Shown here: one piece after another, positions 1,111 through 39,072 of the stretch | Position numbering within the stretch: position 1 is the first letter of the stretch | Layout of the letters: each line of letters opens with the position of its first letter | Virus record (IMG/VR): IMGVR_UViG_3300032050_000049 | Coordinates: 30,621 to 94,620 of that record | From: a virus | Lineage: Duplodnaviria > Heunggongvirae > Uroviricota > Caudoviricetes | Length of the DNA: 64,000 nt | Reading direction: 5' to 3' (one strand) | Notes under the pieces: model-generated | Seen by the model: only the letters and a program-made list of their open reading frames with translations | What the model was told of the DNA's origin: nothing | The model's database searches: none | Program-made: the position numbers and the translations under genes

Positions 1111-3909
1111 ATGCCATTACTAAAAATATTACCATCTTTAATATCTCAAGGATCTTTTACAGGATCTTTCAGTGGTACAGGCAGTTATGCTCGTAGAGCA
1201 TTAACTGCGAGTTATGTATTAGGCGGAGCAGCTGGTTCATCAGGCACAAGTGGCGCAAATGGTACAAGTGGTAGTAGCGGAAGTAGTGGTGCAAATGGTA
1301 CTAGTGGATCGTCTGGTACTAGTGCCACTGCTGGTAGTAGCGGCACAAGTGGTGTAGGTTCTCCAGGCACTAGTGGAACAGCAGGATCAAGTGGTACATC
1401 TGGTTCAAGTGGATCCAGTGGAAATAGTGGTACAAGCGGAAGCAGTGGTGCTACAGGCAGCAGTGGTACAAGTGGTGCTGGATCGCCAGGTAGTAGTGGT
1501 AGTAGTGGAACCAGTACCACTCCAGCTTTATCGTTGGGTCAAACTTATATAGGAAATGGTAGTACTACCACTTATGCTTTATCACAAAGTGTAGCTAATC
1601 GTGATCAAATATTGGTAAATGTAGATGGTGTGTTGCAAGGTAGAAGTGGTAATTATTATACTGTAAGTGGTACCACATTAACTTTAAGTTCCCCACCACA
1701 AAATGGTAGCATCATTGATATACGTTATATTAACGGCGGAAGTGGTATTGTCACAACAGGTAGCTTAGCTAAGCAAACCATATTATACAATGTAGTCTCA
1801 GGCAGTCAAAACACTATAACCGGCTTAAATTTGAACGGTAACAAGTGGGGTGTAGATATAAAAGAAGAGTGGGACGCTGTAATTATAGCTGGTGATCAAT
1901 ATTATAATAGTTGTAGTTTATTATTGCATTGTGATGGTACAAATGGAAGCACCACATTCACTGATAATAGCAAAAATGTTTTAATTGTTACATCGGTTAA
2001 TGGTACTGCAATTAGTACGGCGCAAAGTAAATTTGGTGGTGCTAGTGGATTATTTGATGGCACAAATGATTATCTTTCTATACCAGATAATGAATCCTTA
2101 GAACCAGGTACAAATAATTTGACTTGGGAGATGTGGATAAAAACTACAAGTAGTGTTCAATACGCTACTCTTTATTCTAGGACACCTTCTTCATTTGGCA
2201 GTGGTATGTGGTCGGTGATGATAAATCAGGCATCAAGCACTGCAGGTGATATTGCATTATATGTGGCTGATTATTCAGGTGTTGCACCTCTGTTATTAAC
2301 AACGGGTGTAAGTATTAGAGACAATGCATGGCATCATATTGCTATAGTAAGAAATGGTAGTGCGTGGGTGTGCTATGTTGATGGAACATCTCGTGCGACA
2401 GGCACTTTTAGTGGTAACATCGGTAATCTTAGTTCTGGTCCCAGAATAGGGGCGGACGAATTTTATGGTAGATATTTCAATGGTTATATAGATGAATTGA
2501 GAGTTACTAAAGGTATAGCTAGATATACTAGTAATTTTACACCACAAACATCGGAATTTCCAAATAATGCTAGTATAACGCAATATGCAACCAAATATGT
2601 AGGTTTGATTGGTGGTTTGAATGATAAAAGTGTAGATTATGGTGTGCAGAAGTTGAGTGATAGTTCGCTTAAAGTGGTAAAGATGAGTCAAACTACATCG
2701 CCATTTCCAAGTGGATCATTGAGTTCATCTGTGGACAGAGTGTATGTGAACGTATTGGATTATAGCAAAGTATATGTAACCAGCAGTTATTCGTTAAATT
2801 CAATTAATTCATTAGATATACCCAAAATAAAGTCAATTATATATACAAACAGTAGTTATACCCCAACCACAGCATCAGCTATAGATTTATTCAAACCCAA
2901 TACCAGTTACATTACTATATCAGGTAGTAATTTTAAGCCCAGTGCATCTATATTTATAGATAATACGTCTGGATCAGTGGTTACATATGTGAATAGCAAC
3001 AAACTTAATGTGAATGTAATTTCAAAAAATGAAGGTACTTATCCAATATATTTGATGAATACTGATGGTGCATCTGCATTTAAAATAAACGCTATAACAT
3101 ATATTACCAGCCAAGACCAATTTCAATATTTGGTTTTAGCAGGTGGAGGCGGCGGTGGACTTGCACACGCTGGTGGCGGAGGTGCGGGTGGTTTTCGTAC
3201 TGGATCTTTAGGTTTGAATCGATCTGTACCATACACTGTTTCAGTTGGATCAGGAGGATCTAGCTCACCATCTAGATCCGTAAATGGAACCAATGGAGGC
3301 AACAGTGTATTTGCATCAATTACATCGATAGGTGGTGGCGGAGGAGGATCTGAATACAAACCGGCTAACCCAGGCGGTTCAGGTGGAGGTGGTGCAACCC
3401 AGGGTGCAGGTGGATCTGGAACTGTGTCACAAGGTAATAATGGTGGAGCTGGTAGTCCTACTAGTCCGCCATATGCTGGTGGTGGTGGTGGTGGTGCTGG
3501 TGCTATTGGCGGAAGTTATACTCCTGGTTCAGGAGGTAATGGTGGAAATGGACTTATATCTAATATTTCAAGCACTCCAATATATTATGCTGGCGGCGGA
3601 GGCGGCGGTGTATATGGTGGACAAGGTGGTGTCACCAATCGCGGAACAGGTGGTCTAGGCGGAGGTGGAAATGGTAACTATGGAAATGGAAACGGATCTG
3701 CGGGCGAGGCGGCGCGTGGAGGAGGTGGCGGAGGTGGTGGATATCCAAATGAAAGTGCATATAATGGTGGATCAGGTATTGTAATTGTAAAATATTTATC
3801 TAGTAGAACTTTAACAATTGGGGTGGGTTTGACCTCATCGACTGTTATTACTGGGAGTTATAAAATTACTACGTTTACAGCTGGTTCAGACACAATAACA
3901 ATTTCTTAA
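1111..3909 (+). CDS. Modular fibre protein (932 aa): conserved N-terminal module, collagen-like Gly-X-Y run, LamG domain, C-terminal Gly-rich solenoid-like domain
   Basis: Gly-X-Y run of about 90 aa. 'FDGTNDYLS...YIDELRVTKGIARYTSNFTP' matches the LamG_3 signature. The C-terminus has GGGGGG blocks ending 'GGSGIVIVKY'. Confidence 0.75.
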   Translation: MPLLKILPSLISQGSFTGSFSGTGSYARRALTASYVLGGAAGSSGTSGANGTSGSSGSSGANGTSGSSGTSATAGSSGTSGVGSPGTSGTAGSSGTSGSSGSSGNSGTSGSSGATGSSGTSGAGSPGSSGSSGTSTTPALSLGQTYIGNGSTTTYALSQSVANRDQILVNVDGVLQGRSGNYYTVSGTTLTLSSPPQNGSIIDIRYINGGSGIVTTGSLAKQTILYNVVSGSQNTITGLNLNGNKWGVDIKEEWDAVIIAGDQYYNSCSLLLHCDGTNGSTTFTDNSKNVLIVTSVNGTAISTAQSKFGGASGLFDGTNDYLSIPDNESLEPGTNNLTWEMWIKTTSSVQYATLYSRTPSSFGSGMWSVMINQASSTAGDIALYVADYSGVAPLLLTTGVSIRDNAWHHIAIVRNGSAWVCYVDGTSRATGTFSGNIGNLSSGPRIGADEFYGRYFNGYIDELRVTKGIARYTSNFTPQTSEFPNNASITQYATKYVGLIGGLNDKSVDYGVQKLSDSSLKVVKMSQTTSPFPSGSLSSSVDRVYVNVLDYSKVYVTSSYSLNSINSLDIPKIKSIIYTNSSYTPTTASAIDLFKPNTSYITISGSNFKPSASIFIDNTSGSVVTYVNSNKLNVNVISKNEGTYPIYLMNTDGASAFKINAITYITSQDQFQYLVLAGGGGGGLAHAGGGGAGGFRTGSLGLNRSVPYTVSVGSGGSSSPSRSVNGTNGGNSVFASITSIGGGGGGSEYKPANPGGSGGGGATQGAGGSGTVSQGNNGGAGSPTSPPYAGGGGGGAGAIGGSYTPGSGGNGGNGLISNISSTPIYYAGGGGGGVYGGQGGVTNRGTGGLGGGGNGNYGNGNGSAGEAARGGGGGGGGYPNESAYNGGSGIVIVKYLSSRTLTIGVGLTSSTVITGSYKITTFTAGSDTITIS
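1249..1519 (+). repeat. Collagen-like Gly-X-Y coding repeat (GSSGTSGANG...)
   Basis: Glycine at every third residue across about 90 aa; 9-nt periodic ggnagyggn DNA. Confidence 0.8.
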
Positions 3910-4307: not shown

Positions 4308-7300
4308 ATGTCATTACTTAAAATACGACCATATCTAATTAATTCAGGTTCATTCACAGGATCTTTCAGTGGTACAGGCAGTTATGCTCGTAGAGCACTA
4401 ACAGCTAGTTATGTATTGGGAGGCGCAGCTGGATCCAGTGGCACAAGTGGCGCAAATGGTAGTAGCGGTACATCAGGCAATAGTGGCACAAGTGGAACAA
4501 GTGCTACTGCTGGTAGTAGTGGTACAAGCGGAGTTGGTTCGCCAGGCACAAGTGGCACGGCAGGATCCAGTGGTACAAGCAGTACCGCAACGGTGCAAAC
4601 AGGCAGTATCGCGAAACAAACACTTTGGACCAATGTAACCTCAGGTAGCACAAACACCATAACTGGACTAAGCTTAAGTAGCAACAAGTGGGATGTAAGT
4701 GTGGTGGAAGAATGGGATGCTGCGACATTGGATCAATATTATAACAGTTCTAGCTTATTGTGCCACTTTGATAGTTTGAATCCTGCGGGAAGATTTATTG
4801 ATAGTAGCAGAAACAATTTTACGATTACTTCTAACGGTGATTCTAGATTAAGCACTTCACAATATAAATTTGGAGGAGCAAGTGCATATTTTGATGGCAC
4901 GGCTGATAATCTTTTAATTAACTATAATAACGCATTTAATTTATCGGGTGATTTTACAATTGAAGTTTGGTTTTATCCGATTACTTTAAATGGTGGAATG
5001 ATTTTAAATTTTGCAGGTGGATTGAATATAGCTTGGGCAAGTTACGAACTGGTTAATAACACAGATGGTATTAATTTCGCCGGTAGTTCTGCGAATAATG
5101 GATATGATATTGGTTCTGAAACAGGTGCTACTGGAAGAATAGGAACGGTTAGTGTAAATACTTGGAATCATATAGCAGTTACTAGACAAGGAAATGTATA
5201 TAGAGGATATATTAACGGTGTTCAAGGTTACACACAAACTTTGGCACTTACTCCATATAATCCAAACGCGAGAGGATTAGCAATAGGTAGTAATTATGCT
5301 ACTACTTGGGGTGTTACACCAGCAACTGTTTTAAATGGTTATTTAGACGAATTAAGAATTACCAAAGGTGTAGCTAGATATACTGCTAATTTTACCCCAT
5401 CTAATGCACCATTTCCAAATTCAAGAAATCAAGTGCTTACAAAGTATGTAGGTTTGGTTGGTGGTATTGATGACAAGTATGTGGATTATGGAGTGCAAAA
5501 GTTGAGTGATAGTTCGCTTAAATTGACACGATTAACTTATCCAAATCAACCTATAGTTGGTAGTGGGTCTTTAAGTGGTAGTGTGAATAGGGTATATGTA
5601 AATGTGCTTGATTATACAAAGGTTAGTGTAACGAGCAGTTATTCATTATTATCTAAGACTGCTAGTTATGCTTTAAATGCTTCTGGTGGGGGTGGTAGTA
5701 CATTAAGAACAGGTAGTTTGTATCCTATAACTGCTAGTTGGTCACGTAGAGCTATTACGGCTAGTTATGCGTTGAATGGTGGTACTGCTCTTGTAAATCA
5801 AACATTGAATTATGTGAGTGGTAGTAATTTATATACTTTAAGCAGAAGCGTAGTTTCCCCCAGTGATGTGTTGTTGAGTGTAAATGGTATTATACAAACA
5901 CCCATAACAGATTATACTGTAAGTGCTAGTAAAGTTACATTTACAGAAAGTTATCCTTCGGGTAGTAAAATTAATGCTAGATATTTGGTAACTGCTACAA
6001 ATAGTAGTGATGTTAATTTAGCCAATATAGTATTGACAGGCACAACAACAGGTGATGCTTATTATCCACAAGTTGCTGCATTGTTACACTTTGATGGTGT
6101 AAATGGTAGTACCACTATAACAGACAATAGCAAAAATAACTTAACTGTTACTTCAGTTAATGGCACTGCCATAAGCACTGCGCAAAGTAAATTTGGTGGT
6201 GCAAGTGTATTGTTTGACGGTACGAACGATTATCTTTCTATAGCAAGCAATTCAGTATTTGACTTACTTGGAGATTATACGATTGAATTTTGGGCATATA
6301 GTTCAAATTTTGCAGCCGGTAATATGGGATATTTACACAGAGGATTTTATACTACGGGTACAGCCACTTGGTCAGGACTATCATTTTCAATTAGAGGACT
6401 TAGCACATTAATAAGATTTTATTTTTATGCAACTACATCTGCGAATGAACAAAAAATAGATGTATCTCTTCCATCTAATAATGCATGGCATCATTTTGCA
6501 ATGGTAAAATCAGGTACAACTGGTACAGTTTATGTAGATGGAACATTAGCAGGAACAATTACTTCATTAAATACACCTGCGGCTAGTTCACAAACTTTGA
6601 GAATAGGAGTATGGGATTATAGTGCTGCATCAGAATATTTTAACGGTTATATAGATGAATTGCGAATAACGAATGGGTATGCAAGATATACCGGTAATTT
6701 TACGCCATCTACCACTGCATTTTCTAATACTGGTGGTGATGTAGGTAAATCGTTGGTAGTAAATAGTACTGCTACAGGTGTTAGTATTGGTACCGCTGGT
6801 TTTAATTTAAATTCTAGCAATATTAATCGTATTATTAATGGTGCTATGGCAGTTGACCAAAGAAATGCTGGTGCAGCACAAACAATTACTGCTGCGGCTG
6901 CATTAGCTTATACAGTGGATAGATGGTATGCATATTGTACTGGGGCTAATGTTACTGGACAAAGAATCACTGGTTCGGCTAATAATCAATTTGCTTATAG
7001 ATTTACAGGTGCGGCTAGTGTTACTGCTATTGGATTTGGACAAAGAATAGAAGCGGCTAATAGTATTGATTTGGCAGGATCTACTGCAACACTTGGTGTA
7101 GATTTGGCTAATAGTGTATTGACTAGTGTAACTTGGACGGCTTATTATGCTAATACTTCGGATACATTTGGTACATTGGCAAGTCCAACTAGAACACAAA
7201 TATCGACGGGTACATTTACTGTAACTAGTACATTGACTAGATATAGCGCACAAATATTTATTCCATCAGCGGCTATTACAGGTCTTGAAATTGTATTTAG

Positions 7301-7724
7301 TGTTGGTGCTCAAACATCTGGTACTTGGACTATAGACAATGTTCAATTAGAAGCAGGTCCATTAGCAACACCATTTGAAAGACGCATGATTGGACAAGAA
7401 TTAATATTGTGTCAAAGATATTTTGCATCTATTAATGGAGCTATAGGTGCAGGTAGCGAATTAAATACATCAGCTGCATATATAAAACTACCATTGTCTG
7501 TTACGATGCGAGCAGATAATCAAACCGTCACATTATCAACAGGAAATTCTATATCAGTTGATTTATTTGGTACCGGTACATCAACTACTTCTACCAGCAA
7601 TGTAACTATCACTGCGAATCGAGCCGGTATACTTTTTAATATTAACAGTTTATCACCATCACAAGGAGCAACTGGTGTACCCGCAACAATTTTAGGAACT
7701 GTTTCGGTTTCATCCGAATTATAA
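4308..7724 (+). CDS. Modular fibre protein (1138 aa) with collagen-like run and two LamG domains
   Basis: N-terminus is near-identical to the 1111 gene. Two 'FDGT.D.L...Y[IL]DELRITKG.ARYT.NFTP' LamG signatures. Carries one YPITAS/TASYALN motif. Confidence 0.75.
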   Translation: MSLLKIRPYLINSGSFTGSFSGTGSYARRALTASYVLGGAAGSSGTSGANGSSGTSGNSGTSGTSATAGSSGTSGVGSPGTSGTAGSSGTSSTATVQTGSIAKQTLWTNVTSGSTNTITGLSLSSNKWDVSVVEEWDAATLDQYYNSSSLLCHFDSLNPAGRFIDSSRNNFTITSNGDSRLSTSQYKFGGASAYFDGTADNLLINYNNAFNLSGDFTIEVWFYPITLNGGMILNFAGGLNIAWASYELVNNTDGINFAGSSANNGYDIGSETGATGRIGTVSVNTWNHIAVTRQGNVYRGYINGVQGYTQTLALTPYNPNARGLAIGSNYATTWGVTPATVLNGYLDELRITKGVARYTANFTPSNAPFPNSRNQVLTKYVGLVGGIDDKYVDYGVQKLSDSSLKLTRLTYPNQPIVGSGSLSGSVNRVYVNVLDYTKVSVTSSYSLLSKTASYALNASGGGGSTLRTGSLYPITASWSRRAITASYALNGGTALVNQTLNYVSGSNLYTLSRSVVSPSDVLLSVNGIIQTPITDYTVSASKVTFTESYPSGSKINARYLVTATNSSDVNLANIVLTGTTTGDAYYPQVAALLHFDGVNGSTTITDNSKNNLTVTSVNGTAISTAQSKFGGASVLFDGTNDYLSIASNSVFDLLGDYTIEFWAYSSNFAAGNMGYLHRGFYTTGTATWSGLSFSIRGLSTLIRFYFYATTSANEQKIDVSLPSNNAWHHFAMVKSGTTGTVYVDGTLAGTITSLNTPAASSQTLRIGVWDYSAASEYFNGYIDELRITNGYARYTGNFTPSTTAFSNTGGDVGKSLVVNSTATGVSIGTAGFNLNSSNINRIINGAMAVDQRNAGAAQTITAAAALAYTVDRWYAYCTGANVTGQRITGSANNQFAYRFTGAASVTAIGFGQRIEAANSIDLAGSTATLGVDLANSVLTSVTWTAYYANTSDTFGTLASPTRTQISTGTFTVTSTLTRYSAQIFIPSAAITGLEIVFSVGAQTSGTWTIDNVQLEAGPLATPFERRMIGQELILCQRYFASINGAIGAGSELNTSAAYIKLPLSVTMRADNQTVTLSTGNSISVDLFGTGTSTTSTSNVTITANRAGILFNINSLSPSQGATGVPATILGTVSVSSEL
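4437..4593 (+). repeat. Collagen-like Gly-X-Y coding repeat
   Basis: Same GSSGTSG periodicity. Confidence 0.8.
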
Positions 7725-7730
7725 AATTTT

Positions 7731-8828
7731 ATGGCAACCAAACCTTTTTTATCACAAATCGCAGTACCTGTTGGAACAACAACAGGTGATGTTTATTATC
7801 CACAAACCAGCTTATTGATGCATTTTAATGGTACAAATGGTAGTACCACTATGACAGATAATAGCAAAAATAACTTAACTGTTACTTCAGTTAATGGCGC
7901 TGCCATAAGTACTGCACAAAGCAAATTCGGCGGCAGTAGCGTATTATTTGACGGTACAAATGATTATTTAACTACTAATACAAATGCTAATTTAGCACTA
8001 GAAAGTGCAAATTTTACAATTGAGGGTTGGTTTTATTTTATTGACGGCACGGCTAATTCACTTCGTCCTGTTTTAGGTAATTATTCGTTATTTTCGTCTA
8101 ATAGTATTTATTTTGGAAAACACACATCTTATGGTGGTAAAATGGCACTTTGGATTGGTAACTATTCTGCCAACAATGCATTGTTGGCAGATCCAACTGA
8201 TCTTACAAATAATCAATGGATACATTTTGCTATAGTGAGAAATGGTTCAAATTGGACAATGTATAGAGATGGGGTAAGTGTTACAACTGTTACGTATAGT
8301 GGTGTAACAAGTACAACAAATTTCTTTTATATAGGAGCTAGTGGTGATGGATATTATTTTAATGGTTATATAGATGAATTAAGAATTACCAAAGGTATTG
8401 CAAGATATACCAGTAATTTTACGCCATCTACCACGCAATTTTTAGATAGTGCGGGTGATGCAAATAGTAGTGTAGTGGTTAATAGTACTGCAACAGGATT
8501 TGCAATAGGAACAGGTGGTATAAATGGCGCACAATTAGCAAAAGCTTGGGTCAACTTTAATGGAACAGGTACTGTAGCTATAAGAGATAGTTATAATGTA
8601 AGTAGCATAACAGATTTAGGGGTGGGTGAATATACAGTTAATTTTAGTACCGCATTAAATAATACAAATTATTGTGCTGTGGGGTCTTCTAGAATTGTTG
8701 TTGGGTCTAGAACTAGTGTAATCGGATTTACAAATTATACAACTACAAGTGTAAGAATCGGTGTAATTAATTTAACAAATAGTGTTCAAGATGAAGATAC
8801 TAACTGTGTATCTATATTTAGCAATTGA
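7731..8828 (+). CDS. LamG-domain structural protein (365 aa)
   Basis: LamG signature 'LFDGTNDYLT...YIDELRITKGIARYTSNFTP'. The 'VVNSTATG' C-terminal module is shared with the 4308 protein. Confidence 0.7.
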   Translation: MATKPFLSQIAVPVGTTTGDVYYPQTSLLMHFNGTNGSTTMTDNSKNNLTVTSVNGAAISTAQSKFGGSSVLFDGTNDYLTTNTNANLALESANFTIEGWFYFIDGTANSLRPVLGNYSLFSSNSIYFGKHTSYGGKMALWIGNYSANNALLADPTDLTNNQWIHFAIVRNGSNWTMYRDGVSVTTVTYSGVTSTTNFFYIGASGDGYYFNGYIDELRITKGIARYTSNFTPSTTQFLDSAGDANSSVVVNSTATGFAIGTGGINGAQLAKAWVNFNGTGTVAIRDSYNVSSITDLGVGEYTVNFSTALNNTNYCAVGSSRIVVGSRTSVIGFTNYTTTSVRIGVINLTNSVQDEDTNCVSIFSN

Positions 8829-9073
8829 AATTAACTATATATAAGAGTATGAGTGAAAAACGAATAATATACCCAACGGAAAATGGTGGAGTTGCTATAA
8901 TAATTCCATCCATAAGTGCAAAAAATTCCAATGAAACTTATGATGAATTTATTGAACGAATTGCTGCAAAAGATGTACCCGCAGCAACATCATATAAAAT
9001 TGTGCCGGTAGAAGATATACCAACAGATAGAACATTCAGAAACGCCTGGGAATATCCAACAGATACACTATAA
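8825..9073 (+). CDS. Hypothetical protein (82 aa; ATG at 8849 is a likely alternative start)
   Basis: ORF; no motif. Confidence 0.4.
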   Translation: MKLTIYKSMSEKRIIYPTENGGVAIIIPSISAKNSNETYDEFIERIAAKDVPAATSYKIVPVEDIPTDRTFRNAWEYPTDTL

Positions 9074-9077
9074 TTTT

Positions 9078-9326
9078 ATGATAACCATAAACCTTGATAA
9101 AGCCAAAGAAATACAAAAAAATAGATGGAGAACCGCAAGAAAACCTATCTTAGAAAAATTAGATACACAATTTATGCGTGCTGTTGAAACCGGAGACACA
9201 GCCAAACAACAACAAATCGCAACACAAAAACAAGCACTAAGAGATGTTACAACCACCGATTTATCATCCGTAACTACCCCAGACCAATTAAAAACAATTT
9301 GGCCAAGTATATTAAACGAATCATAA
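9078..9326 (+). CDS. Hypothetical protein (82 aa)
   Basis: ORF; charged, Q-rich. Confidence 0.4.
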   Translation: MITINLDKAKEIQKNRWRTARKPILEKLDTQFMRAVETGDTAKQQQIATQKQALRDVTTTDLSSVTTPDQLKTIWPSILNES

Positions 9327-9329
9327 TTT

Positions 9330-10013
9330 ATGTACTATAGCCCACGAATAGTCACAAGCGGTTTGGTATTGGCACTAGATGCAGCTGAACGTCTTAGCTA
9401 TCCTCGCACAGGCACAACGTGGCGTGATTTAAGCGGTAATAGTAACAATGGCACATTAACCAATGGTCCTACTTTTAGCGCGGGTAATATGGGTAGTATA
9501 GTTTTCGATGGTGTGGATGATTATGTTAATATGGGCACAAGCACTTATTGTAATCTTATTAATATAAGTGTTTCTGTTTGGGTAAGAGTCACTAGTGCAA
9601 GTGGATATTTTTTGGGTAGATATAATAACATTACTGCTTTTAATGGGTTTATTATGTATTATGATGTAGCATCAACTAAATTTGGTGTTGGTGGTAGAGA
9701 ATCGAGCGCCACATATTTAAATAGTGCAACGATAAATACATATCCGTTAAATAACTGGTATAATTTTACCTGGACAAAATCCGCAAATGTTTGGTCGCTT
9801 TATGTTAATGGTTCTTTAGATGTATCATCTGCACTTGGAAATGGAACCACACCATATTCAAATAATACTATGTGGCTTGGCGCAAATAATGAAGGCGGTA
9901 CCCAATATTATTCCGGTGGAAATTTATCTAATGTTTTTATATACAACAGAACAATAACTGCCGTTGAAGTATTGCAAAATTATAACGCAACTAAAAGTAG
10001 ATTTGGTAGATAA
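9330..10013 (+). CDS. LamG/concanavalin A-like lectin-domain protein, tandem paralog 1
   Basis: 'LDAAE..SYP..GT.WRDLSGN.NNGTLTNGPTFS..N.GSIVFDG.DDY' and the C-terminal 'IYNR.ITA.E.LQNYNATK.RFG' signature. Confidence 0.7.
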   Translation: MYYSPRIVTSGLVLALDAAERLSYPRTGTTWRDLSGNSNNGTLTNGPTFSAGNMGSIVFDGVDDYVNMGTSTYCNLINISVSVWVRVTSASGYFLGRYNNITAFNGFIMYYDVASTKFGVGGRESSATYLNSATINTYPLNNWYNFTWTKSANVWSLYVNGSLDVSSALGNGTTPYSNNTMWLGANNEGGTQYYSGGNLSNVFIYNRTITAVEVLQNYNATKSRFGR

Positions 10014-10024
10014 TTATAGTATAT

Positions 10025-10729
10025 ATGTCTGGTATATCAGGACCCAAAATAATTACAAGTGGATGTGTTTTATCACTAGATGCAGCTGATAAAAACAGTT
10101 ATCCTGGTAGCGGCACAGCTTGGCGAGATTTGAGTGGTAATGGAAAAAATCTCACATTAACAAACGGTCCTACATTTAGTGCTGGTAATCAAGGTAGTAT
10201 AGTTTTTGATGGTACAAATGATTATGCGGTTTTGAATCCAGTATCTGCATTTAATATATACTGTATTAGTATGTGGTTTAAACCAACAACAATAATTAAT
10301 TCTACATCGGCTTATAAACCTTTAATTCATTTCAAAAGTAGTACTGCTAAATATATAAGTTTTGGCGATACAACAAACCGTGTTGCGAATGAATATATTA
10401 CTATTGTACAAGAACCAGGTGACAGAAGAACGGCTGTTAACGATGGAGGGTCTTTATCTGCTGGTGTCTGGTATAATGTTGTTTTTAACTACGAAAGTTC
10501 TAAATACAATATTTATATAAATAATACATTAAAAAGTACAACTATTGGTTCTTCTTTAGGTGATGTCCCATTAATAACAGATCCAGATTTTATATATTTA
10601 AATTCTTATGAAGGAGTTTCTGGATATTTAGATAGTTCATTATCTATATGTACGATTTATAACAGAACATTAACCGCATCTGAATTATTACAAAATTATA
10701 ACGCAGTTAAAAATAGATTTGGATTATAA
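10025..10729 (+). CDS. LamG lectin-domain protein, tandem paralog 2
   Basis: Same conserved N- and C-terminal framework; divergent middle. Confidence 0.7.
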   Translation: MSGISGPKIITSGCVLSLDAADKNSYPGSGTAWRDLSGNGKNLTLTNGPTFSAGNQGSIVFDGTNDYAVLNPVSAFNIYCISMWFKPTTIINSTSAYKPLIHFKSSTAKYISFGDTTNRVANEYITIVQEPGDRRTAVNDGGSLSAGVWYNVVFNYESSKYNIYINNTLKSTTIGSSLGDVPLITDPDFIYLNSYEGVSGYLDSSLSICTIYNRTLTASELLQNYNAVKNRFGL

Positions 10730-10738
10730 TTATAGTAT

Positions 10739-11449
10739 ATGGGAATAGCCAGAGGTCCAAAAATTGTAACAAGCGGTTTATTATTAGCACTAGATGCGGC
10801 CGATAAAAACAGTTACGCTGGTAGCGGCACAGCTTGGCGAGATTTGAGTGGTAATAGTAATAATGGCACATTGACAAATGGACCTACATTTAGTGCGGGT
10901 AATCAAGGAAGTATCGTTTTTGATGGCACAAATGATTACGTTGATACAGTTAATACCGGAACAACTTTTCAATTTGCAAATGTCACATTTACTGTGAGTT
11001 TATGGATAAAAACAAGCGCTACAAGTGGTGTTATTATTTCTAAAGGTGCAACTGCTTCTACGGCAGGTTGGCTGTTTCAATTTAACTCCGAAGGAACAGT
11101 TTCTGGTACTACAAAAGGTTCTGATGGTACTAATACTTATAACAGAGCAAGCACAGCAACAGTCAATAATAATACTTGGAGAAATATAGTATCAGTATAT
11201 ACAACTAATACAACAACTCTTGCGAGTAATACAACATCAATATATATAGATGGTGTTTTAAGTAATGGTACAGGTACATTAGGCGGATTAGTATATGCGA
11301 CAACTACAGATACTGTTCAAATAGGTAGAAGACCTTCCGGTGCTTATTGGTCCGGCTCTGTATCTAATTTATTGATATACAACAGAGCATTAACCGCAAC
11401 AGAAATCTTACAAAACTATAACGCAACAAAAGGTAGATACGGACTATAA
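10739..11449 (+). CDS. LamG lectin-domain protein, tandem paralog 3
   Basis: Same framework; divergent middle. Confidence 0.7.
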   Translation: MGIARGPKIVTSGLLLALDAADKNSYAGSGTAWRDLSGNSNNGTLTNGPTFSAGNQGSIVFDGTNDYVDTVNTGTTFQFANVTFTVSLWIKTSATSGVIISKGATASTAGWLFQFNSEGTVSGTTKGSDGTNTYNRASTATVNNNTWRNIVSVYTTNTTTLASNTTSIYIDGVLSNGTGTLGGLVYATTTDTVQIGRRPSGAYWSGSVSNLLIYNRALTATEILQNYNATKGRYGL

Positions 11450-11454
11450 AATTT

Positions 11455-11727
11455 ATGAGTGAAACAAACGTAACAATATACGAGGATAGAGAATTTATGA
11501 TATTCAATGTAAGTGAATTGAATCTTGTAGATTTCACTAAAGTGGAAGAAACTTCAATCGATACTGTAAGAAAAAGTGTTGACCAAACCAAAACATTTTG
11601 TAAATGGGATGGCGCAACACCTGAATTCTTCAGTCAAATGACCACCAAAGAAGGTCCATACACTTACCCCGAAATATTAGATATACTAGCTACACCCGAA
11701 TGGACAGATCCTAATCCTCCATTCTGA
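11455..11727 (+). CDS. Hypothetical protein (90 aa)
   Basis: ORF; acidic. Confidence 0.4.
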   Translation: MSETNVTIYEDREFMIFNVSELNLVDFTKVEETSIDTVRKSVDQTKTFCKWDGATPEFFSQMTTKEGPYTYPEILDILATPEWTDPNPPF

Positions 11728-11766: not shown

Positions 11767-14217
11767 ATGATATTTAGAGCTACAAATTCATCGTCGTTTC
11801 TATTTAATCCTATCTACCCAATCTTTCTTACCAGAAAGTATTTGGGTACGCCTCTTTCATTAAATAGACGCAATCTCATTTTCAGAGTAAAAGTAGTAGA
11901 AAGCGCAAGTTTAAATCTTACTCTTAATTCAGCGCTTACCGAATTAAACACAGAATCATCTACCAATAATATAACATTACGATCTGCTAATGTTATACCA
12001 TTATATACCCCAGCTACATTATACAGTTCTCTTAATAGTGTTTCTATACCATCGTCAATTGGAGATAAAATTGATTATGCACAATCACTAAACAGTGTAA
12101 CTTATACAAACGCAAATGTAGAATCTGTAACAATATCACCAGGCTTAAATAACATAAGTTTAAAACTTGACGGTGATAAATCAGTAAATTCAATTAATCT
12201 TTCAAATGTTCAATTAATTGACCCAAGAATAAATATTGGTAATCAAAATATAGCACTAAATAGTACCATATATGATACTCCAATATTAAACTCAAGTGCT
12301 ATATACAATACATTAAATAATGTTGATCATTATAAAAATATAACTGATCAAACAATAACTAATATAGCATTAAACGGTTCAAATTATTACACTGATATAT
12401 TAGATAGTGGTAATACAAACATATCACTTAATAGTATTATCACTTATAAGCCTGATATAGATAATTCAATAAACAGTATCAACTTACATAGCACATTACA
12501 TTTGCCTGTTCAAGTTGATATGGGAAGTAATGTTGTGCAGTTGTTGGGATCATCTTATTATACAAACATATATGATACATCTCAAACCGCAGTATCTGTA
12601 TTGGGATCACAATATTATGTAAACTACACAGATACGTCGCAAACCGCTGTATCTACATTGGGATCACAGTATTATGTGGATTTCTACGATACGTCACAAA
12701 CTGCAGTATCCACACTTGGATCACAATATTATGTTGACTTTTATGATGTATCGCAAATTGCAGAAACAGTACTGGGTTCACAATATTATGTAGATTTTTA
12801 TGACTCATCACAAACCGCAGTATCCACACTTGGATCTCAATATTATGTAAATTTTTATGATGCGTCGCAAAATGCGGAAACTGTACTGGGTTCACAATAT
12901 TATGTAAATTTTTACAATGCATCACAAACCGCTGTATCAACGGTGGGATCTCAATATTATGTAAACTATACTGACGCATCCGATACTTCATTAGCACTAA
13001 ATTCTTCTGGGTATTATGTAAATTATACGGATACATCAATTAATACAAGTAATATAGTTGGTTTAAACAATTATGTAGATTTTTCTGATATATCCAATAA
13101 TTCTATAGCTTTAAATAAATTAAGCAACTATGTTAATTTTGATGATGTATCTATTTCAAATAATGTTTTGGGTAGTCTAAATCATAATCCTGTACAACTT
13201 GAAATTGTAAATGAAAATCTAACTATTTCTAGTCTCAATTATAAATCAATTAATTTAGAAATTGTAAATGAAAATCTTACCATCAATAGTTTAAATTACA
13301 ATTATTATGCTACTGATTTAATTGCTCAAAATAATGGTTTAAATAGTTTAATATTAAAATCTGCTGATTATGATGACAGTGTTTCATTTGCAACATCTTT
13401 AAATTCTGTAACATTTGTACCAAACGAATACATAAAATCGGTTATCCAAAATAGTAGTGTATTGACCAATTTGAGTATGTTTCAAGGACCATATTCAAAT
13501 AATATGACATACAATGTAGCATTAACTAATTTGAATTATTCGTTGAGTGAATATAATAAATTGGTTAATACCACAGATAATTTGCGTAAATTGGTATATG
13601 AAGATGAATCCAACAATAAGTTGGTAAATCAATCATCTAACTTAAGATCGTTAAGATATGATGATACTAGATTTGAAGTAAATGTTAGTGAAAACAATAG
13701 ATTATCATCGTTAAGAAATTTACTTGACTCAAATAATAGCACAAAAATATCTGGGTCATTTAAAAATATATCATATAATGCAGCATTAATTGATACTGTA
13801 TTGGGTTCAAATACTACATTTAGACCATACAGTACCGCTTCAGCTGTTACATTTAATAGTGATTCACCCACAAATTATGTAAAACAAATCAATATTATTT
13901 ACTATATGAACGGGGGTAATTTAACTCAAAGTATAGTAAATTTTGGTGAAGATTTAGCATTTCAAGTAATAGGTAATTCTAATCCTGGCACATATGTAAC
14001 CAACTTTGATTATAATACACCCTACAGAGCCAGTTTTATTACAAAAAATTGGCCAGTATATCAATATGATACAGGTTCCAACGCAAACCTACCTGTTATA
14101 CTCAATTGTTCCAATGTTGAACGTAAAATAAGCGCAACATCAGGTATATGGGTAGAAGCATCATTGGAAGACGGTGGAACATTGGTGGATGAATACGGAT
14201 TTAGTATAGATATATAA
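11767..14217 (+). CDS. Repeat-rich structural or fibre protein (816 aa) with 9 x 17-aa tandem repeats
   Basis: 'LGSQYYV[ND][FY][YT]D.SQTAVST' is repeated. N/S/T-rich composition. Confidence 0.65.
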   Translation: MIFRATNSSSFLFNPIYPIFLTRKYLGTPLSLNRRNLIFRVKVVESASLNLTLNSALTELNTESSTNNITLRSANVIPLYTPATLYSSLNSVSIPSSIGDKIDYAQSLNSVTYTNANVESVTISPGLNNISLKLDGDKSVNSINLSNVQLIDPRINIGNQNIALNSTIYDTPILNSSAIYNTLNNVDHYKNITDQTITNIALNGSNYYTDILDSGNTNISLNSIITYKPDIDNSINSINLHSTLHLPVQVDMGSNVVQLLGSSYYTNIYDTSQTAVSVLGSQYYVNYTDTSQTAVSTLGSQYYVDFYDTSQTAVSTLGSQYYVDFYDVSQIAETVLGSQYYVDFYDSSQTAVSTLGSQYYVNFYDASQNAETVLGSQYYVNFYNASQTAVSTVGSQYYVNYTDASDTSLALNSSGYYVNYTDTSINTSNIVGLNNYVDFSDISNNSIALNKLSNYVNFDDVSISNNVLGSLNHNPVQLEIVNENLTISSLNYKSINLEIVNENLTINSLNYNYYATDLIAQNNGLNSLILKSADYDDSVSFATSLNSVTFVPNEYIKSVIQNSSVLTNLSMFQGPYSNNMTYNVALTNLNYSLSEYNKLVNTTDNLRKLVYEDESNNKLVNQSSNLRSLRYDDTRFEVNVSENNRLSSLRNLLDSNNSTKISGSFKNISYNAALIDTVLGSNTTFRPYSTASAVTFNSDSPTNYVKQINIIYYMNGGNLTQSIVNFGEDLAFQVIGNSNPGTYVTNFDYNTPYRASFITKNWPVYQYDTGSNANLPVILNCSNVERKISATSGIWVEASLEDGGTLVDEYGFSIDI
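12541..13000 (+). repeat. 9 x 51-bp in-frame tandem repeat
   Basis: 'ttgggatcacaatattatgtaaa.t..a..gat.cgtc.caaaccgc.gtatc' recurs. Confidence 0.8.
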
Positions 14218-14241: not shown

Positions 14242-17200
14242 ATGAGAATAACAGATCTACCACAATTATTTACAGCGTCTATCAATGATTTGCTGTACGT
14301 AATTGATGTAAACGATACAAGTAGCTTTTTTTCTGGGTCAAGCAAAAGAATAGACATTAGTACTCTTTTTTCTTCACCTAGCATAACCGCTAGTTTTGCT
14401 AAAAAAGCATTAAGTGCTAGTTATGCTAAAACAGCCAGTTACGCACTAGTATCAAGATCATCCAGTTACGCATTTAATGCTACAACCGCAAGTTATGCAT
14501 TAAATGCTGGTACCAAAATATACACAGGCAGTGTATATCCAATAACCGCAAGTTGGGCTATCAATGGTGGCACCAAATTGTATACCGGCAGTACATACCC
14601 AATAACTTCCAGTTGGGCACTCAATGGTGGCACAAAGTTATATACTTCCAGTACATATCCAATAACCGCAAGTTGGGCCATAACCGCGAGTTACGCTTTA
14701 AATCAAACCACCAGCGGTACATCAGGCACTTCTGGCACCGCAGGTAGTAGCGGAACAAGTGGTACCAGTGGCACAAGTGGTACCAGTGGCACCAGTGGAA
14801 CAAATGGCACCAGTGGATCAAGTGGGTCAAGTGGATCAAGTGGTACATCTGCAACCGCTGGTACTAGTGGTTTAACAGGATCAAGTGGTACGAGTGGTAC
14901 AAGCGGCAGTGATGGTACCAGTGGGTCAAGCGGTAGCAGTGGCAGCAGTGGTACCAGCGGTATAGAAGGTGGTAGATTGTTTACCGTAACAAGTTCTGGA
15001 TTTAATTATAATATCGCTGGTTACACTGGATCATTTCCTACCATTACGGTGGTAAGGGGACAATTATATTACTTTGATGTAAGCGGTGTATCTGCGTCAC
15101 ATCCATTTGCCTTGAGATTGTCAAGTGGCAATACTAGTGCTGTACCTGGCACCACAAATAATGATCCTGTAAATGGATTGGCAAATACAAACACTTTAAT
15201 AATTTACAGAGTACCTGAAGACGCTCCTTCTAGTATAGTTTACCAATGTGTTGTACATTCAGGTATGATTGGAACTATAAATATAGTAAACCAATATGGT
15301 ACATCTGGTACATCTGGTACTGCGGGAACAGCCGGTAGTAGCGGAAGTAGTGGCACAAGTGGTAGTGATGGTACCAGTGGGTCTAGCGGTAGTAGTGGAG
15401 AATCTGGTACAAGTGGTAGCAGTGGAAGTAGTGGAAGTAGTGGTAGTAGCGGATCTAGCGGTAGTAGCGGTAGTAGTGGAAGTAGTGGTACAAGCGGCAG
15501 TGATGGTACCAGTGGATCCAGCGGTAGCAGTGGCAGTAGTGGAACAAGTGGTATAGAAGGTGGTGGTTTATTTACAGTAACTAGTTCTGGTTTTAATTAT
15601 AACATTGCTGGTTATTCTGGTACTTTTCCTACTATTACGGTAGTGAGAGGTCAGTTGTATTATTTTAATGTAAGCGGCGTATCTGCATCACATCCATTTG
15701 CATTGAGATTATCAAGTGGTAATACTGCAACAGTACCAGGAACAACAAACAATGATCCTGTAAATGGATTGGCAAATACAAACACTTTAATAATTTACAG
15801 AGTACCCAATGATGCGCCTAATAGTATAGTTTATCAGTGCGTTATACATTCAGGTATGATTGGAACTATAAACATAGTTGATCAATATGGTACATCCGGT
15901 ACATCTGGTACTACGGGAACAGCTGGATCAAGTGGTAGCAGTGGTAGCAGTGGTAGCAGTGGTGAAAATGGTACAAGTGGTACTAGCGGTAGTACTGGTA
16001 CAAGTGGTAGCAGTGGATCCAGTGGAAGTAGTGGAACAAGTGGTACGTCCGCAACTGCTGGTACAAGTGGTGAAACTTTTGGTACCAGTGGTACTAGCGG
16101 CAGTACAGGAACAAGTGGTACTAGTGGAGAATCTGGTACAAGTGGTAGCAGTGGATCCAGTGGAAGTAGTGGAACAAGCGGCACCAATGGTACATCTGCA
16201 ACTGCTGGTACAAGCGGTGAAACTTTTGGTACCAGTGGTACCAGTGGATTGACGGGAACTAGCGGTACATCTGGTAGTACCGGAACAAGTGGTAGCAGTG
16301 GTAGCAGTGGAGAATCAGGTACCAGTGGAAGTAGTGGACAATCTGGTACTAGTGGCAGTAGTGGTAATACTGGTAGCAGCGGTAGTAGTGGTGTGAGTGG
16401 TACTACGTTGTATACTGGTAGCACATATCCTATAACGGCTAGTAGAGCTGTTACTGCAAGTTATGCGTTGAATGCTACTGGTGGTGGAAGTTCTTTGTAC
16501 ACTGGTAGTACTTATCCGATAACTGCAAGTTGGGCACTGTATGTAGTGAATGGAACTAGTGGTACTGCTTCATTGAATTTAACTAACATTACACGTAGTG
16601 GCAATGGAAGTGGTTCTGTTTATAATTTAAATAACAATACATTTACCGGCACAAATTCTTTGGTATTTCTGGGTGGTATTACTTTAAATAATAATATTGA
16701 TTATACACTGAGTTCTGGAATATTAACATTTACTTCCCCACCACTATTAAATGAAGAAATACACGTTGTTAAATTTACAGGTGGTGGTGCAAATGGTACT
16801 AGTGGTACAAGTGGCATAGTTGGTATTGCCAATGCGCAAACATTCACAAGCAATGGTATTGCTACACAATACGCTCTTACACAAAGTGTAGTACGTAGTT
16901 ATGACATTATAGTTGCTATAAATGGTGTGGTTCAAAATTACAGTTCCAGTTATACTGTAACTGGATCTACACTTACATTAGCTTCTGCACCACCATTAAA
17001 TTCTAAAGTGGATGTCAGATTTTTAGGTAGCGCAGCTGGCGGTGGAGGAGGCGGTAGCGGCACAAACGGTACAAGTGGATCAAGTGGATCAAGTGGTACT
17101 AGCGGCACAAGTGGGTCAAGTGGAGAATCAGGTACAAGTGGATCAAGTGGAGAATCAGGTACAAGTGGGTCAAGTGGGTCAAGTGGAGAATCAGGTACAA

Positions 17201-17865
17201 GTGGGTCAAGTGGTACTAGCGGCACAAGTGGATCAAGTGGAGAATCAGGTACAAGTGGGTCAAGTGGTACTAGCGGCACAAGTGGGTCAAGTGGAGAATC
17301 AGGTACAAGTGGATCAAGTGGGTCAAGTATATCTTTGCAAACTGGCAGTTTATATCCCATAACGGCAAGTAGAGCTATTACTGCAAGTTACGCATTGAAC
17401 GCAACTGGTGGTGGAAGTTCTTTGTATACTGGTAGTACTTATCCCATAACAGCGAGTAGAGCTATTACTGCAAGTTACGCATTGAATGCTTCTGGTGGAG
17501 GTGGTAGTACATTACAAACTGGTAGCACTTATCCCATTACTAGTAGTTATGCTAATTTTGCAATAAATATTGCTGGTAGTGTTACTACATTGGTGGGTAC
17601 TGATATAAATTGGAACAATCCAACTTATGAAAAGAATATTTCAGTTGCAGAGACATATACATTTTCAAATGTTACAACTGGCAGTTCAATTGTGGTTATA
17701 TTGAATAATACAGGCAGCAACAGTATATTATCTACATTTCCAAATAGTGTAAAATGGGCCAATTCATTGCCACCCACAAATATACTATCAAATGCAACTT
17801 CAATTTATACATTTGTAAGAACCAAATTATATGTTCTGGGTAGTTCTACTGAAAACTATCAATAA
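14242..17865 (+). CDS. Giant fibre protein (1207 aa): N-terminal ITDLP module, YPITAS repeats, four collagen-like runs, two cupredoxin-like domains
   Basis: Gly-X-Y runs. Duplicated roughly 110-aa domain with 'SASHPFAL...YQCV[VI]HSGMIG' (H...C-x2-H-x2-M). Confidence 0.75.
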   Translation: MRITDLPQLFTASINDLLYVIDVNDTSSFFSGSSKRIDISTLFSSPSITASFAKKALSASYAKTASYALVSRSSSYAFNATTASYALNAGTKIYTGSVYPITASWAINGGTKLYTGSTYPITSSWALNGGTKLYTSSTYPITASWAITASYALNQTTSGTSGTSGTAGSSGTSGTSGTSGTSGTSGTNGTSGSSGSSGSSGTSATAGTSGLTGSSGTSGTSGSDGTSGSSGSSGSSGTSGIEGGRLFTVTSSGFNYNIAGYTGSFPTITVVRGQLYYFDVSGVSASHPFALRLSSGNTSAVPGTTNNDPVNGLANTNTLIIYRVPEDAPSSIVYQCVVHSGMIGTINIVNQYGTSGTSGTAGTAGSSGSSGTSGSDGTSGSSGSSGESGTSGSSGSSGSSGSSGSSGSSGSSGSSGTSGSDGTSGSSGSSGSSGTSGIEGGGLFTVTSSGFNYNIAGYSGTFPTITVVRGQLYYFNVSGVSASHPFALRLSSGNTATVPGTTNNDPVNGLANTNTLIIYRVPNDAPNSIVYQCVIHSGMIGTINIVDQYGTSGTSGTTGTAGSSGSSGSSGSSGENGTSGTSGSTGTSGSSGSSGSSGTSGTSATAGTSGETFGTSGTSGSTGTSGTSGESGTSGSSGSSGSSGTSGTNGTSATAGTSGETFGTSGTSGLTGTSGTSGSTGTSGSSGSSGESGTSGSSGQSGTSGSSGNTGSSGSSGVSGTTLYTGSTYPITASRAVTASYALNATGGGSSLYTGSTYPITASWALYVVNGTSGTASLNLTNITRSGNGSGSVYNLNNNTFTGTNSLVFLGGITLNNNIDYTLSSGILTFTSPPLLNEEIHVVKFTGGGANGTSGTSGIVGIANAQTFTSNGIATQYALTQSVVRSYDIIVAINGVVQNYSSSYTVTGSTLTLASAPPLNSKVDVRFLGSAAGGGGGGSGTNGTSGSSGSSGTSGTSGSSGESGTSGSSGESGTSGSSGSSGESGTSGSSGTSGTSGSSGESGTSGSSGTSGTSGSSGESGTSGSSGSSISLQTGSLYPITASRAITASYALNATGGGSSLYTGSTYPITASRAITASYALNASGGGGSTLQTGSTYPITSSYANFAINIAGSVTTLVGTDINWNNPTYEKNISVAETYTFSNVTTGSSIVVILNNTGSNSILSTFPNSVKWANSLPPTNILSNATSIYTFVRTKLYVLGSSTENYQ
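14509..14690 (+). repeat. 3 x 60-bp tandem repeat encoding 'GGTKLYTGSTYPITASWALN'
   Basis: Direct repeats visible in DNA and protein. Confidence 0.75.
14710..14950 (+). repeat. Collagen-like Gly-X-Y run 1 of the 14242 protein
   Basis: GTSGTSGTAGSSG... periodicity. Confidence 0.8.
14958..15300 (+). other. Cupredoxin-like domain copy 1 (amicyanin-like ligand spacing)
   Basis: 'SASHPFAL' His, 49 residues, then 'YQCVVHSGMIG' (C-x2-H-x2-M), then 'TINIV' beta-strand. Confidence 0.55.
15298..15548 (+). repeat. Collagen-like run 2
   Basis: GTSGSSG periodicity. Confidence 0.8.
15550..15890 (+). other. Cupredoxin-like domain copy 2
   Basis: Same ligand set 'SASHPFAL...YQCVIHSGMIG'. Confidence 0.55.
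15893..16400 (+). repeat. Collagen-like run 3 (longest, about 170 aa) with two 'SATAGTSGETFGTSGTSG' sub-duplications
   Basis: Gly-X-Y periodicity; internal duplicate blocks. Confidence 0.8.
17040..17330 (+). repeat. Collagen-like run 4 (GTSGSSGESG units)
   Basis: Near-perfect 27-nt sub-repeats 'ggtacaagtgggtcaagtggagaatca'. Confidence 0.8.
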
Positions 17866-27579: not shown

Positions 27580-28139
27580 AATTATACTCATATGATATAA
27601 CTGAATTTAATTTTAAAGAGCAATTACAAACTGTTTTGAACGTGTCTAATTTAGATGATTTGGGGGAAAACAAAGATAAAGAGAAACTGTATTCTGAGTA
27701 TATTTTGGGTAAACAGTTTTTAGATATGTATGTACAGTTTATAAAAAAATATGTTAGAAATTTGTACGATGACGTTATAGCATATCAAACTAAACCAGTA
27801 TGTAGATTGGTATATAAAAATAAATTAAATATGCATAAACTTCATAAAGACAAGTGGTATAGAAGAAATACTATTTATAGTGATATGCAGATAGATAATA
27901 TTTTTTTACCATTTACAAATGCTTTTGATACAAACACAATTTGGACTGAATCAGTTGAAGACAGTCACGATTTTTTTCCGATAAATTGTGATTACGGACA
28001 ATTTGTACACTGGGATGGTTGCAATTTACTTCACGGTAATAAATTTAATAATACTAACAAAACAAGACTGAGTATAGATTTTAGAGTTTATAAATACAAA
28101 AATTTATTACACCCAGAGTATTCTTTATTGAATTTTTAG
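27576..28139 (+). CDS. Hypothetical protein with a weak HxD...H...RxS (Fe/2OG dioxygenase-like) pattern
   Basis: 'SHDFF', 'LLHG', 'RLSIDFR'. Functional call is speculative. Confidence 0.5.
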   Translation: MKLYSYDITEFNFKEQLQTVLNVSNLDDLGENKDKEKLYSEYILGKQFLDMYVQFIKKYVRNLYDDVIAYQTKPVCRLVYKNKLNMHKLHKDKWYRRNTIYSDMQIDNIFLPFTNAFDTNTIWTESVEDSHDFFPINCDYGQFVHWDGCNLLHGNKFNNTNKTRLSIDFRVYKYKNLLHPEYSLLNF

Positions 28140-28173
28140 AAGAAAAACTATTTATTAGTTACACAAAGAGATT

Positions 28174-28503: not shown

Positions 28504-28508
28504 TTAAA

Positions 28509-28883: not shown

Positions 28884-28931
28884 TTTATAATAAGTACTGT
28901 TGTGTAAATAAAAACTATATATTAAAAAGTT

Positions 28932-29111: not shown

Positions 29112-29120
29112 AATAGTTTT

Positions 29121-29575: not shown

Positions 29576-29581
29576 AATATA

Positions 29582-30927: not shown

Positions 30928-30931
30928 AATT

Positions 30932-39056: not shown

Positions 39057-39072
39057 ATTTATCCTTTCTAAA

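Follow-up and report, generated by a model that had tools for sequence, protein, structure and literature searches.

The window analysed here, a 64-kb stretch of DNA from an uncultured aquatic phage, carries three consecutive genes (g1, g2 and g3, which occupy slots 1, 2 and 3 of a tandem array) that code for stand-alone LamG_3 proteins. Each gene is composed of conserved ends, which we call the N frame and the C frame, and a divergent central core. Comparisons with related phages reveal that the diversity of these proteins arises by replacement of whole cores, with breakpoints that fall in the frames. We consider it probable that the locus represents a three-slot array of single-domain, lectin-fold adhesins with exchangeable cores, located in the tail-fibre region of a large aquatic phage.

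An earlier note on this DNA, made from the sequence alone, had described three consecutive LamG paralogues, and open reading frames (ORFs) are present at exactly the positions it gave, all on the + strand. The g1 ORF (9330-10013, 227 aa) is divided into an N frame (~9330-9530), a core (~9531-9917) and a C frame (~9918-10013). The corresponding parts of g2 (10025-10729, 234 aa) are located at ~10025-10228, ~10229-10633 and ~10634-10729, and those of g3 (10739-11449, 236 aa) at 10739-10939, ~10940-11353 and ~11354-11449. In a Pfam profile search, all three proteins exceed the gathering cut-off of 27.6 bits for PF13385 (Laminin_G_3), with scores of 59.5 bits for g1 (E value of 5e-16), 58.2 bits for g2 and 78.4 bits for g3.

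When the three proteins are aligned, 48 of the 65 residues at the N-terminal end of g1 and 17 of the 24 at its C-terminal end are invariant. Pairwise protein identity is 69-82% over the N-terminal ~67 aa, about 70-80% over the last ~30 aa and 12-18% in the core, and this combination of conserved ends and divergent centre is far above chance. The ends had been described as near-identical and the cores as essentially unrelated. Both descriptions point in the right direction and both are overstated, given the actual N-terminal identities and the fact that the cores retain the match to the LamG_3 model along with the hallmarks of the fold (W88, W148, Y166 and N168-G169 in HMM columns). The further suggestion that the conserved ends constitute the LamG_3 scaffold is contradicted by the span of the Pfam match (aa ~60-220), which covers mostly the variable part.

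At the DNA level, the N frames form a family of direct repeats (D10) in a search of the whole window, with three copies of 186 nt that are 73-85% identical and are spaced by 701 and 714 nt. Copy 1, a putative homology arm in g1, is located at 9338-9523, copy 2 in g2 at 10039-10224 and copy 3 in g3 at 10753-10938 (all +). The N frames of g2 and g3 are mutual nearest DNA neighbours (85%), and the two intergenic spacers of the array are nearly alike (TAATTATAGTATA(TA)TG). We rejected recent tandem duplication or gene conversion as the sole cause of the conserved ends, because the identity at third codon positions in the frames is only 0.5-0.8, and therefore purifying selection is also required.

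The strongest evidence for exchange comes from a relative that carries a g3 orthologue. This locus (L004; L numbers denote loci of relatives, of which a scan of IMG/VR gave 80) resides on a T4-like contig with a T4-type portal, gp23 and gp13, which is unrelated to the window outside the g3 gene. DNA identity between the two genes is 99-100% across 10957-11346, drops to the level typical of frames on both sides, and is random beyond the gene. The best two-breakpoint model delimits an exchanged core cassette at 10943-11398 (+; aa 69-220), with 5 mismatches in 456 positions inside the cassette and 76 in 255 in the remainder of the gene (Fisher p 1.7e-31). Synonymous differences per site (pS) amount to 0.03 in the core, 0.79 in the N frame, which is saturated, and 0.35 in the C frame. 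We conclude that the g3 core cassette was recently exchanged.

The same pattern extends to other relatives. Among 37 g3 orthologues that are 81-96% identical, divergence is 6% in the core, 25% in the N frame and 21% in the C frame, and dN/dS within one core type is 0.1-0.4. The core had previously been regarded as hypervariable, yet it is the least diverged part among these orthologues, and it is not hypervariable by mutation. The g2 core shares 83-86% protein identity with the cores of two other loci (L052 and L028) while its N frame is near saturation at third positions; relative to L052, third-position identity is 0.80 in the core versus 0.45 in the N frame. A reverse mosaic is formed by L011 and L012, which share near-identical C frames and have older cores. 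Low core divergence combined with saturated frames and unrelated flanks indicates that cores move between phage genomes through recombination within the frames.

Close strains exhibit the outcome of this process at a single locus. In the syntenic locus of a close relative (L017), all three cores are at random-level identity to those of the window, and flanking sequences are 93-100% identical in DNA. These flanks comprise both 82-aa genes upstream and the 90-aa gene downstream, as well as the start of g1 (~90 nt) and the junctions between genes. At least five different core triplets occur on contigs that code for an identical 90-aa protein, and the locus is thus highly variable at the population level, where the earlier note had proposed to compare it. 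The contigs stem from freshwater time series (for example JGI 3300027816, 3300032116 and 3300032093). Among close relatives, we counted at least four core types in slot 1, at least five in slot 2 and at least three in slot 3. Slots are replaced independently of one another, and the same core type can be found in slot 1 of one strain and in slot 2 of another. Slot-specific leaders are nevertheless kept across strains, with the slot 1 leader (MYYSPRIVTSGLVLALDAAERLSYPRTG) present in all, and the breakpoint maps are alike in every strain comparison.

Several irregular arrays were also observed. A 115-kb viral contig (IMGVR_UViG_3300035670_000056, which includes both L011 and L017) carries two LamG triplets ~17 kb apart, one of them syntenic with the array of the window and the other containing a g3-type core. 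As to pseudogenisation in relatives, which the earlier note had named as contrary evidence, g2 is disrupted in two contigs from metagenomes that match the window almost perfectly elsewhere, through a 1-nt deletion corresponding to window position 10275 (L098) or through a deletion of ~140 nt corresponding to ~10030-10170, with loss of the start and the N frame (L100). These disruptions may be assembly errors, or g2 may be dispensable. In addition, the slot 2 protein of L096 is missing 8 residues within its N frame.

To relate the exchanged segments to the protein fold, we used an AlphaFold2 model of g3 that was built with 87 family sequences, and from which only the secondary structure was taken for mapping variability. 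The model (pLDDT 87.6, pTM 0.88) depicts one compact jelly-roll domain with 16 predicted strands and a C-terminal helix, arranged in the two sheets characteristic of LamG_3. Strands assigned to the N frame encompass residues 14-19, 32-34, 42-46, 50-52, 58-62 and 67-71, the core supplies 10 more strands within residues 83-195, and the C frame supplies a strand (205-214) and the helix (220-234). The conserved ends are thus predicted to be integral strands of the jelly roll. Of the 16 predicted strands, 10 fall in the variable segment (aa ~68-205), and therefore most of the sandwich varies, including its core strands, and not merely the loops. The earlier note had envisaged diversified loops on a constant jelly roll, a view to be abandoned if the variable regions mapped to the core of the fold, which is where the g3 model places them.

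The solved structures that best match the g3 model in a Foldseek search are the HCN domains of the tetanus and botulinum toxins, the lectin domain of trans-sialidase, and CBM40. E values are about 1e-10 to 1e-8, TM scores are 0.6-0.7 for the toxin and trans-sialidase domains and 0.47 for CBM40, and weak Pfam matches to PF07953 and PF02973 were also obtained. These are jelly rolls that bind carbohydrates or receptors, but sequence identity to them is 14-25%, and the resemblance is confined to the fold and does not imply a common ligand. The best viral structural matches are uncharacterised ‘concanavalin A-like’ proteins.

More than 6800 homologues of g3 are present in the protein collection. 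Our family statistics rest on 195 stand-alone members of 213-270 aa from about 70 non-redundant viral contigs. Of 91 tandem arrays, 36 have three genes, which is the commonest size, 23 have two, 3 have four and 29 have a single gene, and many of these singletons are truncated by contig ends. The mean frequency of the top residue is about 0.65-0.8 in columns 7-67 and 204-234 and falls to 0.18-0.44 in columns 68-203, where only the fold hallmarks are retained. Mean identity across the family is 58-65% in the frames and 17% in the cores, which separate into 148 clusters at 35% identity. Core types are found at any position in an array, and we therefore rejected the possibility that slots 1, 2 and 3 represent three ancient clades.

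Frames are partly homogenised within a genome. For 22% of N frames, 13% of C frames and 1.6% of cores, the sequence closest in DNA belongs to the same locus, compared with 1% by chance. LamG modules also exist as fusions, either in pairs (two modules in a single ORF in L019, L035, L071 and L088), N-terminal to a glycine-rich domain, or C-terminal to long proteins. Among cultured phages, S-SKS1 has the module in large tail-region proteins beside genes annotated ‘baseplate wedge subunit’ and ‘tail fiber protein’. Protein p176 of S-PM2 carries it at the C terminus, and phage immuto has two stand-alone copies; their depositors labelled these ‘virion structural protein’ and ‘structural protein’, respectively, on a basis that is not verifiable. 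Family members also occur in metagenome-assembled genome bins, mostly of Bacteroidota or Patescibacteria, and these cases may reflect phage contigs that were binned wrongly, or LamG proteins of a generic kind.

Directly downstream of the array is a conserved gene for a 90-aa protein (w90, 11455-11727, +), which the earlier note did not mention. A homologue is located beside or within the array in 43 of ~80 non-redundant loci, including those of S-SKS1 and immuto, and is sometimes interleaved between array members. We found 3674 homologues of w90, the best 120 of which are 70-99% identical, and among these 120 there is neither a name nor a Pfam domain. The model of w90 exhibits a small alpha+beta fold, for which no informative structural match was found. 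The strong conservation of this gene next to highly variable ones suggests that its product works with the constant part of the system, perhaps as an assembly factor or adaptor.

With these observations in mind, we propose the following explanation. Each gene consists of an N frame (~67 aa, predicted strands 1-6), a core of ~135-150 aa that contributes the following 10 strands and can be exchanged, and a C frame (the last strand and the helix). The frames, which are conserved in thousands of family members, act as homology arms in which homologous recombination swaps entire cores. The proteins would be displayed on the virion, on or near the fibres or baseplate. The frames may provide a constant side for structure and assembly, possibly aided by the 90-aa neighbour, and the core may determine which glycan or receptor of the host surface is bound. 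We infer virion display and glycan or receptor binding from genomic context, fold and the annotated fusions. Core swapping most likely changes what the virus adheres to, and with exchangeable specificity cores a phage population would carry a combinatorial repertoire of adhesins. A bolder and rather doubtful extension holds that the frames, perhaps together with the 90-aa protein, serve as a universal adapter for hundreds of divergent LamG cores, and thus create a combinatorial host-range code that is reshuffled across lineages. In its strongest form, exchange would not depend on general recombination alone but would be actively promoted, whether by the partner protein, by homing endonucleases encoded nearby (as seen in L004) or through a DNA signal, for which the oddly codon-biased QNYNA stretch is a candidate.

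The genomic setting of the array is relevant to the proposed virion display. The array resides within a block of + strand structural genes, and its placement in a tail-fibre gene cluster, as the earlier note had it, is upheld by the adjoining fibre ORFs. Two of these (1111-3909 and 4308-7724, both +) contain LamG domains and collagen-like repeats, and a third LamG-bearing ORF follows at 7731-8828 (+); each has a PHROG match to tail fibre or baseplate-wedge families. A collagen-like fibre protein with 9 stretches of collagen repeats (14242-17865, +) is encoded downstream, and collagen-like fibre ORFs with tail fibre or baseplate matches thus flank the array, as expected of a host-recognition module. 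All three array proteins match phrog_8510 (‘head and packaging / virion structural protein’). In L011, L021, L038 and many other loci, the array is likewise found amid LamG-bearing proteins of the fibre type, and in L005 and L006 it adjoins several glycosyltransferase genes.

Of the two 82-aa genes upstream, the one at 8825-9073 (+) is 96-100% identical in DNA to L017 and has no family match in Pfam or PHROG. The other, directly upstream of the array at 9078-9326 (+), matches phrog_20196, a family of unknown function, with an E value of 3e-17. It also has weak matches to the tail fibre assembly families phrog_4912 and phrog_8746 (E values of 4-7e-4) and one to PF16778 (Phage_tail_APC, E value of 0.005) that is below the cut-off. 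Across strains with different cores, its DNA identity is mostly 93-98%, with one 45-nt window at 82%.

The fibre ORFs contain LamG domains of a second class (1888-2580, 4725-5435, 6048-6743 and 7782-8462, all +), which have a frame-and-core layout like that of the array genes. These domains are framed by repeats D7 (161 nt, 4 copies, N frame) and D15 (98 nt, 4 copies, C frame). Averaged over pairs, they share 57-81% protein identity across alignment columns 1-60 (N frame), 9-25% across columns 91-150 (centre) and 65-82% across columns 211-240 (C frame).

Several observations weigh against the proposed explanation. The array of L004 is positioned between gp23 (major capsid) and gp13 (neck), and a head or neck decoration fits this placement equally well. 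The ‘structural protein’ labels in the isolates are annotations by depositors that cannot be verified. Frames remain conserved in modules that are fused inside larger proteins, and thus docking of a free subunit cannot alone account for frame conservation. Finally, codon usage at conserved frame positions is near expectation (0.64 versus 0.58), which indicates that there is no general DNA-level selection for recombination arms. We accordingly rejected the idea that the frames are under such selection as recombination signals, except at the QNYNA motif. In this motif, located in the C frame (10634-10729 and equivalents), the codon for the conserved Asn residues is AAC in 63-72% of the 195 members, versus 23% expected from their overall codon usage, and this bias may reflect a DNA- or RNA-level constraint. 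The L004 array is also bracketed by homing-endonuclease-like genes (L004 positions 9164-9916, GIY-YIG with NUMOD3, and 12964-13785, NUMOD3), which could promote local exchange.

The position of the L004 array is the main reason to consider that these proteins are head or neck decorations analogous to Hoc, which would adhere unspecifically to particles, mucus or cell surfaces and whose exchange would tune stickiness. The phrog_8510 category and the small, stand-alone, single-domain nature of the proteins are also in accord with such a role. We nonetheless judge it unlikely, given that the arrays of the window, L011, L021 and L038 are surrounded by fibre-type LamG proteins, and that S-SKS1 has the module in large proteins near baseplate wedge and tail fibre genes. 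Moreover, replacement of all three cores between near-identical strains is the pattern expected from a host arms race, and one report (PMC7029224) assigns the region before the neck genes of pelagi- and cyanomyophages to the host recognition cluster. A different possibility is that the paralogues are obligate subunits of a hetero-oligomer, such as a heterotrimeric fibre tip, with the frames as interface. The prevalence of triplets (36 of 91 arrays), the conserved slot-specific leaders and the natural two-module fusions would suit this arrangement. However, arrays of one, two, four and more genes are also common, one core type can occupy any position and different slots, slots are replaced independently, g2 is apparently dispensable in two contigs, and the g3 model is a compact monomeric domain. 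An obligate hetero-oligomer therefore seems distinctly improbable to us, although such an arrangement is compatible with exchangeable adhesins and simply not required by them.

We regard as more remote still the prospect that the proteins are absent from the virion and act in or on the infected cell, for example by binding or blocking host glycans for superinfection exclusion, together with the glycosyltransferases that are common in these regions. The glycosyltransferase genes next to the L005 and L006 arrays are consistent with this role, as is the suggestion in PMC7029224 that genes of the hypervariable cluster may alter the host surface. Yet neither a signal peptide nor a membrane segment is evident on inspection of the g1-g3 sequences, and tail-region proteins, or ones that depositors labelled virion structural, contain homologous modules as fusions. 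In addition, the array is tightly spaced with the fibre genes on the same strand, and its upstream neighbour weakly resembles tail fibre assembly proteins. Least credible of all is a constant jelly roll whose loops are diversified in place, either through point mutations that diversifying selection favours or through the action of a diversity-generating retroelement (DGR). Lectin folds, LamG among them, are able to carry variable binding loops, and the conserved ends and very divergent centres of g1-g3 are what one would expect from such a process. DGR targets such as Mtd of Bordetella phage BPP-1 are phage receptor-binding proteins (RBPs) in which a variable part that binds the ligand is set on a constant scaffold, and to that extent they resemble the proposed adhesins. 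However, the variable segment extends over 10 of the 16 predicted strands, the core is the best-conserved part within one core type (6% divergence, dN/dS of 0.1-0.4), and the differences between cores stem from the replacement of entire cores and not from changes at certain positions. DGRs require a reverse transcriptase together with a template repeat, and the positions that they vary are adenine-templated and usually belong to a C-type lectin fold. As the earlier note had remarked, no reverse transcriptase (RVT families) is evident, in this case among 39 window ORFs scanned against Pfam, a scan that left out some small ORFs. The repeat search of the whole window likewise uncovered no template-like repeat of any core, with only the frames being repeated. 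We therefore rejected a DGR or other in-place hypermutation.

An array of exchangeable adhesins has precedents in its logic. The conserved segments of T2 and T6 gp38 are thought to form a structural core and to ease the exchange of specificity determinants (Trojet et al. 2011, PMC3157838). Like the array genes, gp38 codes for a small protein, is located by the fibre genes of T4-type phages and has conserved segments that flank highly variable specificity segments. Unlike the array, gp38 is a single gene with four short hypervariable segments between glycine-rich motifs, whereas in the array one core of ~140 aa is exchanged in a single block, usually in three genes accompanied by the 90-aa partner. 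Attachment to the fibre tip has been demonstrated for gp38, while for the array it is a deduction. There is no gp38 family among the Pfam and PHROG matches of g1-g3, and gp38 does not have the LamG fold of the array. Thus gp38 is the closest system in logic, and the likeness is one of organisation alone.

The RBPs of lactococcal siphophages (p2, TP901-1 and bIL170) have a constant shoulder or neck as anchor, and their carbohydrate-binding beta-sandwich heads are swapped by recombination, which changes host range. In these RBPs the exchange boundaries fall between separate domains of a trimer, whereas the breakpoints of the array are inside one jelly roll, and therefore a chimeric domain must be able to fold although its frames and its core have separate origins.

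Hypervariable regions are also known from aquatic phages. T4-like pelagiphages and cyanophages have a hypervariable host recognition cluster with fibres, glycosyltransferases and concanavalin A domain proteins, according to PMC7029224. The gene layout around the array agrees with this cluster, within which the array represents a specific unit. The locus of the window shares the strain-level variability of such clusters and of the metaviromic islands of large aquatic myophages (PMC7029224, PMC3909814). Those papers treat this variability at the level of gene content and, in the passages covered here, do not describe the LamG array, its frames, intra-domain breakpoints or the 90-aa partner. A functional analogy is offered by the umbrella toxin particles of Streptomyces, which have several paralogous UmbA lectins with diversified glycan-binding parts (PMC13274773; bioRxiv 10.1101/2025.04.24.650519). 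UmbA lectins resemble our proposal in combining a constant assembly part with diversified binding parts on one particle, and thereby a repertoire of targets. They belong to a bacterial toxin system of another architecture, and the analogy does not extend beyond function.

Other parts of the window exhibit features that are described here for completeness. Proteins equivalent to that encoded at 14242-17865 differ in length among near-identical strains (1207, 1150, 1244, 1706 and 1724 aa in loci L091-L099), and the L008 contig, which is probably a chimeric assembly, switches to bacterial genes inside this gene. An 816-aa ORF at 11767-14217 (+) has no family match and contains at least eight tandem repeats of 57 nt (19 aa) at 12488-13114; strains whose flanks are identical (L093, L100 and L092) have an ORF of 791 or 513 aa in its place. 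Between 17874 and 26543 (+) are seven glycine-rich ORFs of 344-455 aa with no Pfam or PHROG match. These ORFs share repeats D12, D14, D16 and D17 and constitute a further family of tandem paralogues, and a 162-nt tandem repeat in 3 copies is located at 18612-19097. At ~28000-31000, gene orientation and GC skew change sign between the + strand structural genes and the - strand genes for replication and metabolism, with a boundary of transcription blocks near 29-31 kb.

The remainder of the window encodes DNA and RNA ligases, a thymidylate synthase, a Mom-family protein and glycosyltransferases, a gene content that indicates a large virulent phage. The gene for the Mom-family protein (DNA modification, E value of 6e-44; 35087-35794, +) is located amid the - strand block. 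Three ligase genes reside within 14 kb on the - strand (31583-32680, 38046-39098 and 44171-45262) and represent one ATP-dependent DNA ligase and two RNA ligases, of the PHA02142/Rnl type and the T4 RnlA type. A gene for a GIY-YIG, I-TevI-like homing endonuclease (52564-53244, +) overlaps the end of the thymidylate synthase gene (53222-54373, -), whose product is unusually long (382 aa, matched to a profile of 266 positions), which implies a large insertion. Among 50,697 phage records, we found no near DNA relative of this region save a weak match to S-SKS1. The DNA ligase is closest to that of an uncultured phage record (48%) and of Caulobacter phage Cr30 (45%).

Exchange within a single beta-sandwich means that five to six N-terminal strands, together with a strand and a helix at the C terminus, must pack against 10 strands of a foreign lineage that is ~15% identical. 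Such packing across lineages is relevant to the engineering of chimeric lectins and of phages with swapped binding modules. Cultured phages that carry the module, namely Synechococcus phage S-SKS1 and Flavobacterium phage immuto, make the hypothesis testable. How the large uncultured phages that dominate lakes and oceans recognise their hosts is mostly obscure. The frames and the 90-aa partner together provide a compact marker with thousands of homologues, which can be sought in reads and contigs to catalogue core types and to track their turnover over time series.

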